From: a virus
Lineage: Duplodnaviria > Heunggongvirae > Uroviricota > Caudoviricetes
Reading direction: 5' to 3' (one strand)
DNA length: 26,692 bases
IMG/VR virus record: IMGVR_UViG_2740892270_000008
Made by a program: the position numbers and the translations under genes. Numbering within the stretch: the first letter of the stretch is position 1; each line of letters begins with the position of its first letter. The notes below the pieces were generated by a model. It was given only the letters and a program-made list of their open reading frames with translations, did not search any database and was not told where the DNA came from. Of this stretch, positions 4,647 to 23,808 are shown one piece after another.

Positions 4647-4958
4647 NNNNNNNNNNNNNNNNNNNNNNNNNNNNNNNNNNNNNNNNNNNNNNNNNNNNNN
4701 NNNNNNNNNNNNNNNNNNNNNNNNNNNNNNNNNNNNNNNNNNNNNNNNNNNNNNNNNNNNNNNNNNNNNNNNNNNNNNNNNNNNNNNNNNNNNNNNNNNN
4801 NNNNNNNNNNNNNNNNNNNNNNNNNNNNNNNNNNNNNNNNNNNNNNNNNNNNNNNNNNNNNNNNNNNNNNNNNNNNNNNNNNNNNNNNNNNNNNNNNNNN
4901 NTACAGCGGAATATGCCGTTCTGTTGGTGCGAAACAAGTCAGCTAAATGAGGTGTTAT

Positions 4959-9701: not shown

Positions 9702-9972
9702 NNNNNNNNNNNNNNNNNNNNNNNNNNNNNNNNNNNNNNNNNNNNNNNNNNNNNNNNNNNNNNNNNNNNNNNNNNNNNNNNNNNNNNNNNNNNNNNNNNN
9801 NNNNNNNNNNNNNNNNNNNNNNNNNNNNNNNNNNNNNNNNNNNNNNNNNNNNNNNNNNNNNNNNNNNNNNNNNNNNNNNNNNNNNNNNNNNNNNNNNNNN
9901 NNNNNNNNNNNNNNNNNNNNNNNNNNNNNNNNNNNNNNNNNNNNNNNNNNNNNATGATGACCGGAGGCGGGT

Positions 9973-10224: not shown

Positions 10225-10405
10225 NNNNNNNNNNNNNNNNNNNNNNNNNNNNNNNNNNNNNNNNNNNNNNNNNNNNNNNNNNNNNNNNNNNNNNNNNNNN
10301 NNNNNNNNNNNNNNNNNNNNNNNNNNNNNNNNNNNNNNNNNNNNNNNNNNNNNNNNNNNNNNNNNNNNNNNNNNNNNNNNNNNNNNNNNNNNNNNNNNNN
10401 NNNNN

Positions 10406-16306: not shown

Positions 16307-16556
16307 NNNNNNNNNNNNNNNNNNNNNNNNNNNNNNNNNNNNNNNNNNNNNNNNNNNNNNNNNNNNNNNNNNNNNNNNNNNNNNNNNNNNNNNNNNNNNN
16401 NNNNNNNNNNNNNNNNNNNNNNNNNNNNNNNNNNNNNNNNNNNNNNNNNNNNNNNNNNNNNNNNNNNNNNNNNNNNNNNNNNNNNNNNNNNNNNNNNNNN
16501 NNNNNNNNNNNNNNNNNNNNNNNNNNNNNNNNNNNNNNNNNNNNNNNNNNNNNNNN

Positions 16557-17789
16557 TTCGAAACAGACGCGGATGTTCATGCCCGCTCATTCACGGCAGC
16601 AAAAACGGCACGGCTGGATGTGGTAACCACATTACAGGCCGAAGTGCAGCGGGCCATTGATGAGGGGATTTCACAGAAAGAATTTATCCGCACACTGACG
16701 CCACGCCTGCAAAAGCTGGGATGGTGGGGAAAGCAGATTGTGGTGGACAGCGACGGTAACGCGGAAGAAGTGCAGCAGGGCAGTCCCCGTCGTCTGGCGC
16801 TGATTTACAACGTGAACACCCGTGTGGCTTACAATGCCGGGCGTTACACGCAGATGATGAACAACACGGACACGCATCCGTTCTGGCAGTATGTGGCGGT
16901 CATGGACAGCCGTACCCGCCCGTCGCATTCCGCCCTTAACGGTCTGGTATTCCGCTATGACGATCCGTTCTGGAAAACACACTACCCGCCCAATGGCTGG
17001 AACTGCCGCTGCCGTGTGCGGCCATTGTCTCAGGCCCGTCTGGATGCAATGGGGTTATCCGTTTCATCCGGTGAGGATCATCTCTCCACCCGCAATGTTG
17101 AGGCTGGCGTGGATAAACAGACCGGAGAAGTCAGAGAAATGCCGGTGACCACATATTCAGATGGCGCCAGAACCATGACACCGGATGTGGGCTGGTCATA
17201 TAACCCCGGCTCGGCAGCGTTCGGCACAGACCAGGCGCTGATCCGCAAACTGATCGAGGTGAAAAGCCCGGCGTTACGGGAAATGGTGGTTCAGGAGATG
17301 AACAACAGCCCGGAGCGGCAGCTGGCGTTCCGCATCTGGGCAAAAAACATCATGCAGACCCGGCGAGGTGGTAACGATATCCGCACGCTGGGCTTTATGA
17401 CTGAAAGCATTGCGCAGGCAGTGGAAAGCCGGACGGGAACGCCACCGGCCCGCCTGCTGGCGATGAGCGGTAAAAATGTGCTCCATGCGGACAGTGTGAA
17501 ACATCAGAATGACGGCATCGCTCTGACGCCGGAGGACTTCGGGCGCTTACCGGCAATGCTGGCAAGGCCAAAAGCGGTACTGTGGGACAAACGGCACAAC
17601 AATCTGATGTATATCGTGGAAAATCAGGATGGCAGTGTGCAGATTGCCGTTAATGCACCGTACAGTCTGAAACGTCAGCCCGACAAACTGGATGTGATTG
17701 TGAATGCTTACCGGGTTATCAATATGGATAAGCTGAAATCGGATATCCGGGGCGGAATGCTTGAGGTGCTGGAAGGACAAATTGATTAA
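16557..17789 (+). CDS. Head morphogenesis protein F (MuF family); N-terminus inside N-masked block
   Basis: MuF-domain core ...IYNVNTRVAYNAGRYTQMMN...FWQYVAVMDSRTRPSHSALNGLVF...NGWNCRCRVRP; about 250 aa of C-terminal sequence follows the core. Confidence 0.8.
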   Translation, partial: FETDADVHARSFTAAKTARLDVVTTLQAEVQRAIDEGISQKEFIRTLTPRLQKLGWWGKQIVVDSDGNAEEVQQGSPRRLALIYNVNTRVAYNAGRYTQMMNNTDTHPFWQYVAVMDSRTRPSHSALNGLVFRYDDPFWKTHYPPNGWNCRCRVRPLSQARLDAMGLSVSSGEDHLSTRNVEAGVDKQTGEVREMPVTTYSDGARTMTPDVGWSYNPGSAAFGTDQALIRKLIEVKSPALREMVVQEMNNSPERQLAFRIWAKNIMQTRRGGNDIRTLGFMTESIAQAVESRTGTPPARLLAMSGKNVLHADSVKHQNDGIALTPEDFGRLPAMLARPKAVLWDKRHNNLMYIVENQDGSVQIAVNAPYSLKRQPDKLDVIVNAYRVINMDKLKSDIRGGMLEVLEGQID

Positions 17790-17872
17790 CGGTCAGTGGC
17801 GGGGGTCGAACCCGCATACATGATCCACCCGGAGGCAGGCACCGACTTTACCAGTTAAGCGTACACTGACCG
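17790..17872 (-). other. tRNA-like structured element (T-arm-like hairpin inside a 9-bp terminal inverted repeat); not a canonical tRNA
   Basis: Minus-strand reading: CGGTCAGTG...GCGGG-TTCGACC-CCCGC-CACTGACCG; ends pair perfectly over 9 bp; GCGGG/CCCGC stem with TTCGA-containing 7-nt loop mimics a tRNA T-arm; no convincing anticodon arm found by hand. Confidence 0.3.
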
Positions 17873-17910
17873 CCTGTTTATTTTATATTCATCCTTTATG
17901 CGGAGGCAAT

Positions 17911-18381
17911 ATGTCATCCATTGATGCAGCTGTCGTTGTTGACGTTACGCGTCTCCAGCGAGTGTTTGCCCGGCTTCAGTTTGTGGGCGGCGGAAAAGAC
18001 CTGGCCCGCNNNNNNNNNNNNNNNNNNNNNNNNNNNNNNNNNNNNNNNNNNNNNNNNNNNNNNNNNNNNNNNNNNNNNNNNNNNNNNNNNNNNNNNNNNN
18101 NNNNNNNNNNNNNNNNNNNNNNNNNNNNNNNNNNNNNNNNNNNNNNNNNNNNNNNNNNNNNNNNNNNNNNNNNNNNNNNNNNNNNNNNNNNNNNNNNNNN
18201 NNNNNNNNNNNNNNNNNNNNNNNNNNNNNNNNNNNNNNNNNNNNNNNNNNNNNNNNNNNGTATGCCACCGGGACCGGCGGCCATTGGCGCACGTCCGTAT
18301 ATGGGCTTTGATCAGGTGGCAGAACAGGAGATCATGGACGAAATCAGAAAACGCTTTAAAAAGGCCACAGAAACGCCGTAA
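17911..18381 (+). CDS. Virion morphogenesis protein G-like (Mu gp31-like); middle masked
   Basis: ORF stays in frame across the 249-nt mask (83 codons), giving 156 aa, which matches the size of Mu G as recalled; SD GGAGG upstream. Confidence 0.6.
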   Translation: MSSIDAAVVVDVTRLQRVFARLQFVGGGKDLARXXXXXXXXXXXXXXXXXXXXXXXXXXXXXXXXXXXXXXXXXXXXXXXXXXXXXXXXXXXXXXXXXXXXXXXXXXXXXXXXXXXXMPPGPAAIGARPYMGFDQVAEQEIMDEIRKRFKKATETP

Positions 18382-18558
18382 TGGTTTAAGGTATGCAAAC
18401 GTATTACCTTACCCCCTTCAGGCGCGTGTCGTGATTTTCTAACCTGTATTTAACGGGCTTTAAAATCTGCGTGAAGCGCCTTTCTCATTCCCCCCCTGTC
18501 AGCACTTTCTGAAGTCCCGCAAAACCAGCCCCAAAAATACCCGGCTTATGCTGCCGGT
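18382..18558. promoter_or_regulatory. G-I intergenic region; candidate strong gyrase site (SGS) equivalent
   Basis: 177-bp non-coding spacer ~17.9 kb from the proposed left end; Mu carries its central SGS between G and I at ~18.1 kb; 6-bp stem hairpin AAGGTA-11 nt-TACCTT just after G stop. Confidence 0.3.
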
Positions 18559-22300: not shown

Positions 22301-23808
22301 TGATTAACTTTGATTATATCGGCGATAACAATCGCATTCCGCTGGTACAGATTGAAATCAATAATTCAATGGCCGTGACCGGCACTCCACCACAGCGTCA
22401 GGCGGTACTGTTGTTTGGTCAGGCTGCAATGAAAGACACTACCATTCAGGGGCGCGGTCAGCTTGATGTACCAGTACGTATTACCCGAGCTTCACAAGCA
22501 AGAGAACTCTGGGGGCGAGGTTCCATGATTGCACTGATGGTAGAGGAATTTATCGCCATTAACCCTGACACAGAGTTATATGCCATTGCACAGGGGGCTG
22601 GAACAGGTCAGTCCAGGGCATGCGTGATGAATATCATTGGAACAGCATTGGCAGACGGGGTGTTAAGTGTTTACATCGGCGGTCGCCGTTACCTCCTGCC
22701 CGTCAGTAAGGGGAAAAAAGGTAAAGAGCTTGTGGAAGAGCTGGCTAAGGTCATTAACGCTGACACTGATGCGCCATTCACTGCTATCGCAGCTGAAGTC
22801 AGTGGTGATAATGCTGAAGGACTTAAAGGCAGCATGGGGGTTAACGCCCGCTTTATCGGTGAATGCTCAGCTCATGATTTACGGGTGAACTATTATGACG
22901 GTGAAACTACACCGGCCGGTCTTACGCTGGAGCTCGTCGCGCCAACACAGAAGGCAACAAACCCCGATATCACCCGTAGCGTCTCAGGGATGGGGAATCG
23001 TCAGTACAACTACATCGTCATGCCCTATAAGGATGCGGCAAATCTCAAAATTCTGGCGGATGAACTGCTGAAACGCTGGGGACCGGTAAAAATGTCGGAC
23101 GGTATGGTCTGGATGGCGCATACCGGCACCTTCGGTACGGCAACCAGTTTTGGTGAATCCCGTAATGACTTCCTGTTTACCTGCACTTCTATTCCTAAAG
23201 CACCAGAGCCGGATTATGTCTGGGCTGCCTCCATTTGTGCGGTCTGTGCGCCCTCCCTGTCAACGGATCCGGCCCGACCATTACAGANNNNNNNNNNNNN
23301 NNNNNNNNNNNNNNNNNNNNNNNNNNNNNNNNNNNNNNNNNNNNNNNNNNNNNNNNNNNNNNNNNNNNNNNNNNNNNNNNNNNNNNNNNNNNNNNNNNNN
23401 NNNNNNNNNNNNNNNNNNNNNNNNNNNNNNNNNNNNNNNNNNNNNNNNNNNNNNNNNNNNNNNNNNNNNNNNNNNNNNNNNNNNNNNNNNNNNNNNNNNN
23501 NNNNNNNNNNNNNNNNNNNNNNNNNNNNNNNNNNNNNGCAGCGTTTTCCGCGCCATAAACTGGCTGATGACGGGACGCCCGTTCGTGCCGGTCAGAATAT
23601 CGTGACACCGGAGATCATGAAACTTCAGTTAATTTCGCTGGGGGAAGAATGGGTGGATCTGGGACTGGTCGAAAATCTGGACACCTTTAAAAAGAATCTG
23701 CTCGTGGAGCGCAACACAAAAGACCGTAACCGTCTGGATGTGATGTGTACACCGGATCTGGTTAACCAGTTCCGCTTCATGGCCGCGCAGATCCGTTTCA
23801 TTTTGTGA
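22300..23808 (+). CDS. Contractile tail sheath protein L (middle masked)
   Basis: 502-aa frame continuous across mask 23288-23537; position before tail tube; size near Mu L. Confidence 0.8.
   Translation: MINFDYIGDNNRIPLVQIEINNSMAVTGTPPQRQAVLLFGQAAMKDTTIQGRGQLDVPVRITRASQARELWGRGSMIALMVEEFIAINPDTELYAIAQGAGTGQSRACVMNIIGTALADGVLSVYIGGRRYLLPVSKGKKGKELVEELAKVINADTDAPFTAIAAEVSGDNAEGLKGSMGVNARFIGECSAHDLRVNYYDGETTPAGLTLELVAPTQKATNPDITRSVSGMGNRQYNYIVMPYKDAANLKILADELLKRWGPVKMSDGMVWMAHTGTFGTATSFGESRNDFLFTCTSIPKAPEPDYVWAASICAVCAPSLSTDPARPLQXXXXXXXXXXXXXXXXXXXXXXXXXXXXXXXXXXXXXXXXXXXXXXXXXXXXXXXXXXXXXXXXXXXXXXXXXXXXXXXXXXXXQRFPRHKLADDGTPVRAGQNIVTPEIMKLQLISLGEEWVDLGLVENLDTFKKNLLVERNTKDRNRLDVMCTPDLVNQFRFMAAQIRFIL

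Follow-up and report, generated by a model that had tools for sequence, protein, structure and literature searches.

A probable tRNA-mimic RNA gene family between head genes F and G of Mu-like phages

The DNA analysed here, a 26,692-nt stretch from a virus of the Caudoviricetes (IMG/VR record IMGVR_UViG_2740892270_000008; hereafter ‘the window’), very probably carries on its minus strand, at 17788–17874, a real and functional tRNA-mimic RNA gene of an undescribed family. The gene lies between the counterparts of head genes F and G of phage Mu, and its relatives are kept at this one position in Mu-like phages of the Enterobacterales, Pasteurellales, Orbales and Alteromonadales; they occur also in satellite-like islands. 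Genome annotation flags the element as ‘tRNA-OTHER’, and the comparative data identify it as a conserved non-decoding tRNA mimic, not annotation noise. An earlier note, made from the letters of the window, had drawn attention to a tRNA-like element at this place and had offered three options for it: a tRNA remnant, a structured RNA or a protein-recognition site. The second is supported by a covariance-model match and by compensatory changes in relatives, the third, as a site on DNA, found no support, and the first is weighed below with the other alternatives.

Structure of the RNA and selection upon it

A scan of 17700–17960 matched the Rfam tRNA model, RF00005, to 17791–17870 on the minus strand, the strand proposed by the earlier note, with a score of 31.0 bits (E = 7e-5, gathering score 29). 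The alignment covers model positions 1–71 and skips the anticodon arm alone, where the RNA has 24 nt and the model 18; ARAGORN found neither tRNA nor tmRNA in the window, in line with the failure of the earlier note to fold a canonical anticodon arm. A scan of the whole window in gathering mode returned no match, which we attribute to speed filters, and the window scans gave no Rfam family besides tRNA, matches to STnc480, SNORD27 and DUF3800-III being at chance level (E 4–9). The NCBI pipeline PGAP labels the identical sequence in Escherichia coli as ‘tRNA-OTHER’, 80 nt, minus strand, and an identical 96 nt, comprising the element and its immediate flanks, was found in 173/5426 complete E. 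coli genomes (~3%, O157:H7 strains included). Folding energy alone was unremarkable (z = −1.8, either strand), and significance therefore rests on the covariance-model match and the comparative data.

Read 5′ to 3′ on the minus strand, from 17874 to 17788, the ~87-nt RNA runs GGCGGUCAGUG-UAC-GCUU AACUGGUA AAGU-C-GGUGCCUGCC UCCG GGUGGAUC-AUGUAU-GCGGG UUCGACC CCCGC-CACUGACCGUU; that is, between the two strands of a closing stem stand a UAC linker, the D arm, a single C, a central arm, the linker AUGUAU and the T arm. The acceptor-like closing stem pairs GGCGGUCAGUG (17864–17874) with CACUGACCGUU (17788–17798). It contains the 9-bp inverted repeat previously remarked, cggtcagtg (17790–17798) and cactgaccg (17864–17872), extended by two G:U pairs to 11 bp. 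No CCA is encoded at its 3′ strand, and the final two bases of the RNA are the complement of the last two bases of the TAA stop codon of F (17787–17789). The invariant UAC linker and the D arm, GCUU-AACUGGUA-AAGU, with G18 and G19 in its loop, occupy 17845–17863 (minus strand), as delimited by the Rfam alignment and by near-invariant columns among relatives; relative to canonical tRNA there is an extra C after A9. The central arm (17822–17844, minus strand; GGU-GC-CUGCC[UCCG]GGUGG-AUC), which Rfam skips, replaces the anticodon arm. As folded, it is a closed 8-bp rod with a UNCG-type tetraloop cap and no 7-nt loop, its U:G and G:U pairs form on the minus strand only, and it is the variable, class-defining part of the RNA. 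The AUGUAU linker, which resembles a variable loop, and the T arm lie at 17799–17821 (minus strand); the GCGGG/CCCGC hairpin noticed earlier was confirmed at 17799–17815, its 7-nt loop being UUCGACC on the minus strand.

BLAST in E. coli, together with sequence patterns run against IMG/VR, a set holding one genome per species, and metagenomes, gave ~40 distinct family members. A covariance model, R1, was built from 20 members and then used to confirm membership. The window copy scored 87.7 bits on R1 and members 52–93 bits; ordinary tRNAs scored <50, save a few class II tRNAs at 49–58 bits, which overlap the weakest members. Host records comprise Escherichia, Leminorella, Photorhabdus, Klebsiella, an unclassified Enterobacteriaceae strain, Gilliamella, Shewanella, Alishewanella, Alkalimonas and Pasteurella, and BLAST recovered from E. 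coli (L003) a divergent copy at the F–G position with a different central hairpin. A loose pattern applied to genomes matched mostly ordinary Acidobacteriota tRNAs; the tightened pattern was family-specific among the collected loci, and its further matches on metagenomes were a single ordinary class II tRNA and an odd tRNA with a 7-nt loop, the latter in three copies. Three metagenomic loci (L193, L198, L208) hold odd tRNA-like genes in tandem, whose ‘anticodon’ stem has 6 bp and whose 7-nt loop, GUUGAGA, places UGA at the anticodon position; these share the family GUAC and D-loop motifs, yet may be real, if unusual, tRNAs.

Comparison of relatives, in an alignment of 43 members, showed that the paired positions are kept, with compensatory changes. 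Standard pairs were formed in 92% of cells, compared with 39–58% when partners were slid, and 13/18 pairs had changed on both sides; none of 500 shuffles reached any of the five measures used. Compensatory changes were seen in all three scored helices, and in the central arm too. Even the pairs −1:73 and −2:74, beyond the canonical 7-bp acceptor, covary, with 5 and 6 pair types respectively. Cells with G:U or U:G outnumbered those with A:C or C:A by 44 to 11, identifying the minus strand as that of the structured RNA. A plus-strand structure, or a terminator of late mRNA, was rejected on these counts and on the lack of any terminator-like site on the plus strand of the window locus.

The near-invariant core of the alignment, gUGUAC.cuUAA..GGUAAagc.G ... 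gU.UAUG.GGGUUCGAC.CCC.cCa, consists of the nucleotides that build the tRNA elbow and core: U8–A9, the GG of the D loop, the short linker in the place of the variable loop, and the T arm GGGUUCGAYYCCC are all kept, and 3/5 pairs of the T stem are invariant in 42 distinct relatives. In two phages whose F and G DNA is 60–75% identical to that of the window the element is 90–98% identical, and it is thus more conserved than the coding DNA that flanks it. Conservation beyond the 3′ end, inside F, was near background, and no conserved extension of the RNA was found there.

Selection for a tRNA-like body is not accompanied by any means of decoding. No member has in its central arm a 7-nt anticodon loop with U33 and a purine at 37. 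The arm takes one of three forms: a rod of 7–8 bp with a tetraloop, as in the window (CUGCC[UCCG]GGUGG on a GGU/AUC base); a covarying 5-bp basal stem (GGCAU/AUGUU, GGCGU/ACGUU or GACGU/ACGUU) followed by a recurring AA/CAY internal loop (CA/CAU in one variant), a covarying 2–4-bp stem and a tetraloop; or a longer arm with a loop of 10–14 nt. Tetraloop caps include UCCG, UUCG and GCAA. Closing stems are mostly 8–14 bp (11 bp in the window), and 5–6 bp in a few lineages; single mismatches shorten this simple count in a few others. Neither CCA nor the discriminator base is conserved across the family, and ARAGORN, run on 29 relatives, gave no tRNA or only 2-base ‘anticodons’. With no anticodon loop, a paired 3′ end and no CCA, the RNA cannot decode and has, as transcribed, no free acceptor end, although post-transcriptional addition of CCA is compatible with the computed data. 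In sum, of the attributes of a tRNA it has the acceptor, D and T arms of the cloverleaf and the elbow, and it has neither the anticodon arm nor a free 3′ CCA end. A standard tRNA or a tmRNA was rejected as an identification, given the negative ARAGORN results for window and relatives and the length of the element (87 nt, compared with ~350 nt for tmRNA).

The gene appears to have its own transcription signals. Promoter scanning predicts a sigma-70-type promoter at 17880–17909 on the minus strand (−35 TTGCCT, 17909–17904; −10 TAAAAT, 17885–17880; spacing 18), in an arrangement that is conserved, for example as ATGACA-18-TATAAT in distant relatives. Promoter-like sites (7–11/12 matches) were present in 45/48 distinct upstream regions, and in the other three a further copy or a tRNA precedes the gene. 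The mean match for the 48 regions together was 8.4/12, against 4.7 in shuffles, and half of the regions, compared with 2.6% of shuffles, scored at least 9/12. The −10 box ends 5–6 nt upstream of the closing stem in the window, and 5–14 nt before the canonical +1 in the family, and transcription is predicted to start at or next to the first G of the extended stem (~17874). The −35 box of the window is the complement of the Shine–Dalgarno region of gene G; such overlap of −35 and the complement of the ribosome-binding site is general in Mu-like phages that have the element, the start codon of G lying 1–2 nt upstream of the box. Copies from Leminorella, Gilliamella and Photorhabdus have their own intrinsic terminator 4 nt after the stem, and in a Klebsiella copy the closing stem leads directly into a U run.

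Genomic settings of the family

In the window the element lies in a 121-nt spacer, from the TAA of the left gene (17787–17789) to the ATG of the right gene (17911). The left gene (16458–17789, plus strand) encodes a MuF minor head protein with Pfam Phage_Mu_F and MuF_C domains, its start coordinate, which falls in a masked run of N, being inferred from the identical record L001; the right gene (17911–18381, plus strand; 18010–18259 masked) encodes a virion morphogenesis protein with the Pfam domain Phage_tail_S, the family of Mu G. The placement between F and G given in the earlier note is therefore correct. Six runs of N, of 181–255 nt, interrupt the window (4647–4901, 9702–9953, 10225–10405, 16307–16556, 18010–18259 and 23288–23537). 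The start of F and the middle of G are among the parts masked; the masked letters were taken from the identical E. coli record (L001/L215), and because of the runs the portal gene and F are merged into a single 969-aa frame in the list of open reading frames of the window. A 100% identical stretch in E. coli strain 600029 belongs to a Mu-like prophage of 38.6 kb, which sits in an sgrR-family gene and encodes a repressor, a Ner-like protein, transposase A and B, Gam, Mor, lysis proteins, portal, F, G, a protease, the major head protein gpT, tail proteins, Com and Mom. The right end of this prophage, beyond the window (L215 35941–37995 and 39330–40221), holds a gene for a 684-aa DUF6645 protein beside the invertase/tail-fibre region, and Com and Mom; no link of these three to the RNA was found. 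The G–I spacer of the window (18382–18558, 177 nt) lies where phage Mu has its strong gyrase site (annotated at Mu 17879–17880).

In every Mu-like locus of the family whose sequence includes both flanking genes, the element lies between F and G and antisense to both, across F proteins with 31% to 100% identity to that of the window; the synteny thus holds among phages with F proteins only 31–47% identical. An F–G element is present in Pasteurella phage Pmp9, for example (63.9 bits on R1). Phage Mu lacks the element, its F and G genes overlapping by 4 nt, and relative to Mu the element is accordingly an insertion; Shewanella phage vB_SspS_MuM16-1, in which F and G are 9 nt apart, lacks it too. 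The suggestion of the earlier note that the F–G interval might be a site for cargo, like the neighbouring G–I interval, which holds the anti-CRISPR locus of Pseudomonas Mu-like phages, is reasonable, but the element is far more stably conserved than typical cargo. In MuM16-1 (L227 2819–5300) G is followed by a reverse-strand gene, a transcriptional regulator and an annotated RNA-directed DNA polymerase, so that the region around G does collect cargo.

Phages that elsewhere are 95–98% identical to the window carry in this place a version, 56–76% identical and with another RNA class, of a cassette that unites the RNA gene, its promoter and the final ~280 nt of F, which code for the MuF_C domain. 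Correspondingly, the last ~20 residues of F track RNA class, distant phages included. As the F tail is physically adjacent to the RNA gene, this tracking is weak evidence of any interaction. The possibility that F is a polymorphic MuF toxin and the RNA its immunity factor was rejected, the C-terminus of F being homologous to Mu gp30 (Pfam MuF_C) with no added toxin domain.

Away from F–G, copies were found in an E. coli satellite-like island with genes for a DUF4222 protein, a RepA-like AAA_25 helicase, SSB, PerC and Mor, with GTGAAA repeats after Mor that look like origin iterons, and with 1–3 tandem copies of the RNA (L002 3993–4300, minus strand; also L200, L203, L207 and L210). The island recurs in gut metagenomes, and in L002 it adjoins a truncated mdtP. 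L002 has three tandem copies, one of them annotated ‘tRNA-Tyr’ by PGAP, and these comprise one copy for each of three E. coli phage classes: they match class A, that of the window, at 85%, class B3 at 88–91%, and the B1 and long-arm class at 79%. Copies 2 and 3 have no promoters and are followed by a single hairpin and U run, read as a probable terminator; they must therefore be excised from a polycistronic transcript. In a second setting (L035 9828–14313, and L041) the tRNA-like gene stands between genes for a DUF2971 protein and a DUF2199 protein, preceded by Mor and, directly after Mor, a Mu-type major head gene (gpT); this may be a capsid-encoding satellite of Mu-like phages.

Three chromosomal members lie 17 to ~100 nt past the last repeat, at the trailer end, of a CRISPR array on which they converge (L078 4016–4207, L068 2391–2620 and L116 4453–4685). 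In Klebsiella spallanzanii (L078; type I-E) the copy lies 17 nt past the final repeat of the array, and beyond the RNA promoter comes a degenerate repeat (18/29 matches), so that gene and promoter are contained between the two. In Enterobacteriaceae strain G50 (type I-E) the copy is between the array and iap, and in Alishewanella aestuarii (type I-F) it is past the trailer end of the array. CRISPR adjacency is not general in the family: there was no member at eleven I-E loci of Klebsiella, Pectobacterium and Enterobacter or at the E. coli K-12 locus, and a metagenomic contig with the Alishewanella element showed no CRISPR repeat in the ~1 kb scanned, unrelated DNA beginning right after the 3′ end. 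Mimicry of CRISPR repeats, suggested by an I-F-like ‘CUGCC’ stem and by a shared 8-mer, GTACAGGC, in one relative, was rejected, as the arms of the CRISPR-adjacent members are unlike their own repeats. A CreTA-like arrangement was likewise rejected: inspection of L078 showed no match of guide to promoter for either trailer spacer, and the eleven I-E loci and K-12 have no element.

Proposed function and alternatives

The best explanation as a whole is an independently transcribed, tRNA-shaped RNA gene whose product acts in trans as a decoy or ligand, to which we give a probability of about one half. A trans-acting mimic of tRNA shape is the best fit to the combination of an invariant elbow, a variable class arm, the lack of anticodon and CCA, a promoter of constitutive type and spread to satellite-like elements. 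Action in trans is favoured, moreover, by the occurrence of copies away from F–G, by the class-matched copies of the island and by the failure to find an antisense target beyond chance: the longest complementarity of the RNA to phage loci was 8–11 nt, within the range for shuffled sequences, and antisense regulation of a phage target in trans was rejected on this ground. Considered by itself, the activity of the RNA as a trans-acting tRNA-shaped decoy or ligand is a tentative proposal, possible rather than probable.

According to this proposal, the sigma-70 promoter would fire in the lysogen and immediately after infection, the RNA would start at the first base of the closing stem, and converging late transcription from F to G would shut it off late in the lytic cycle. 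Elbow and core would be bound by a protein that normally recognises the shape of tRNA, candidates being a host tRNA-targeting defence or toxin, a processing enzyme and a phage protein, and the central arm would give class specificity. Having no anticodon and no free CCA end, the RNA would stay out of translation. If the RNA does engage a tRNA-binding protein as decoy or ligand, bacteria and phages would have in it a counterpart of the tRNA mimics of eukaryotes and viruses, and it could be a new RNA-based factor in conflict between phage and host or between phage and satellite.

A bolder form of the proposal, which we consider unlikely, is that the RNA is a class-specific, tRNA-shaped effector of Mu-like phages and of the satellites exploiting them, serving either as an immediate-early or virion-delivered counter-defence or as a factor of helper–satellite compatibility. 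The hypervariable central arm would then evolve in an arms race or in step with the MuF tail. Such an effector would explain both the presence of one copy per class in a single island and the stray copies at the trailers of I-E and I-F arrays.

Several observations weigh against a trans-acting tRNA mimic. Among the genes of the prophage none is obviously tRNA-related, and no partner protein was identified. The T loop is not wholly fixed: an allele with G57A (TTCGA to TTCAA; L229, E. coli M7638), which keeps a purine at 57, loses its tRNA call by PGAP in many O157-type genomes, and six viral contigs (L033, L034, L042 and L044–L046) have A58C (GGGTTCGCCCCCC), which would break the T54–A58 pair; such copies may be inactive or decaying. 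Promoter and start site are predictions from sequence, and the window copy has no recognisable terminator. Lastly, the co-variation of class with the F tail could be plain physical linkage, and a role in cis, too, would be consistent with an antisense position at F–G that stays fixed among very divergent phages.

A cis role of this kind, in which the element would regulate the late operon at the F/G junction by interference, by RNase III cleavage of paired mRNA or by uncoupling translation of G from that of F, with the fold merely stabilising the transcript, is improbable, though some of the data are in line with it. Wherever a Mu-like locus with the element was examined, it runs antisense to F and G; its −35 overlaps the complement of the ribosome-binding region of G, with the start codon of G 1–2 nt upstream of the box; and the translational coupling of F and G in Mu, with their 4-nt overlap, is replaced by the insertion. 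But the strongest selection falls on the tRNA elbow and core rather than on any pairing region, conservation inside F, past the tRNA-like body, hardly rises above background, and the plus strand has no terminator-like site. Copies outside F–G, in islands and chromosomes, some of them tandem and without promoters, are likewise hard to reconcile with action in cis.

Less probable again is an RNA linked to the virion, bound by the C-terminal part of MuF and packaged or delivered with the genome, whose central arm would match the class of the F tail. MuF minor head proteins are packaged and ejected with DNA, and in other phages the position after MuF_C holds toxin and immunity cargo. The swapped cassette, which unites the MuF_C-coding end of F with RNA gene and promoter, and the correspondence of the last ~20 F residues with RNA class even in distant phages, are as this explanation would have them; it is favoured, too, by the RNAs held in Mor-bearing satellite-like elements, one with a Mu-type major head gene, and one RNA per class in the L002 type. 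Against this, adjoining F tail and RNA gene should be inherited together even if they do not interact, the RNA is missing from Mu although Mu has a MuF_C domain, and there are chromosomal copies with no MuF nearby; binding of the RNA by F is itself hypothetical.

That the element is a decaying tRNA gene or the remnant of an attachment site, with no present function, is very improbable. The weak match to tRNA models (31 bits), the ‘tRNA-OTHER’ label and the T-loop substitutions of some alleles are what might be seen in a relic, and in Alishewanella variable DNA begins right after the 3′ end of the chromosomal copy, as at tRNA integration sites. The remnant offered as an option by the earlier note is nonetheless contradicted by the full length of the element, by compensatory changes in three scored helices and the central arm, by the conserved predicted promoter, by conservation above that of flanking coding DNA and by synteny reaching down to 31–47% F identity. 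Its location, inside the head operon of a transposable phage, is also unexpected, since Mu-like phages integrate by transposition and are not known to insert at tRNA attachment sites.

That the RNA decodes, as a tRNA with an unusual anticodon arm (a suppressor, or one with an 8-nt loop or an intron), can practically be dismissed: in spite of one relative annotated tRNA-Tyr and, in many members, a basal 5-bp stem resembling an anticodon stem, there are only tetraloops or unrelated 10–14-nt loops in place of a 7-nt loop with U33 and purine 37, ARAGORN gives nothing or 2-base ‘anticodons’, the 3′ end is paired and without CCA, the discriminator is not conserved, and bacteria are not known to have a tRNA splicing endonuclease.

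Relation to known systems

Rfam 15 has no matching family except the generic tRNA model, and a full-text literature search returned no description of a tRNA-like F–G RNA family, which is apparently undescribed. With canonical tRNA (RF00005) the RNA shares the acceptor-like stem, U8/A9, a D arm with G18 and G19, a short variable region and the UUCGA T loop; it differs from it in having no anticodon loop, no encoded CCA, an extra C after A9 and a longer closing stem. With transcription predicted to begin on the first base of the stem, RNase P would have no leader to remove. The tmRNA and YrlA, a bacterial Y RNA, similarly use a tRNA elbow as a protein handle outside decoding, although tmRNA is much longer, with a tag reading frame, pseudoknots and no D stem, and YrlA is circularly permuted and ends at the ‘anticodon’ side; neither family was reported in the window by ARAGORN or Rfam.

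The C4 RNAs of P1/P7 and the CI immunity RNA of P4 are also small structured phage RNAs, with tRNA-like features of maturation. They act, however, by base pairing of loop to target and need processing by RNase P, whereas the window RNA has no match to C4 in Rfam, many members of its family have tetraloops only, and no complementary target was found. The three CRISPR-adjacent copies show the characters neither of an RNA anti-CRISPR (solitary repeat) nor of a CRISPR-guarded toxin RNA of CreT type. Phage morons, including the anti-CRISPR locus at G–I, offer a closer parallel in organisation, being extra units with their own promoter, and sometimes a terminator, between genes that abut in a related phage; the element has its own predicted promoter, terminators in some members, and an insertion point at which F and G are contiguous in related phages. 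It departs from typical, patchily distributed morons in that its product is an RNA and in that position and orientation are conserved across several bacterial orders.

The Bacillus cereus pseudo-tRNA ‘tRNA-Other’ is a tRNA-like gene near mobile DNA that is non-functional in translation and is flagged ‘Other’ by gene finders (PMC3399842). The window RNA is similarly non-decoding, near mobile DNA and flagged ‘Other’; a sequence relationship between the two is not expected. The B. cereus RNA, a single chromosomal gene in Firmicutes, reportedly keeps its anticodon arm and can be aminoacylated. In shape, a likeness can be drawn with mascRNA and menRNA, the tRNA-like small RNAs cut from MALAT1 and MEN-beta (PMC11693755): these too are L-shaped tRNA mimics with a non-decoding arm, in their case shortened, in the place of the anticodon arm, and would act, if at all, by shape. 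They are eukaryotic; RNase P and RNase Z release them from a long precursor, and CCA is added. The window RNA, by contrast, would be a primary transcript from its own predicted bacterial promoter and has a paired 3′ end.

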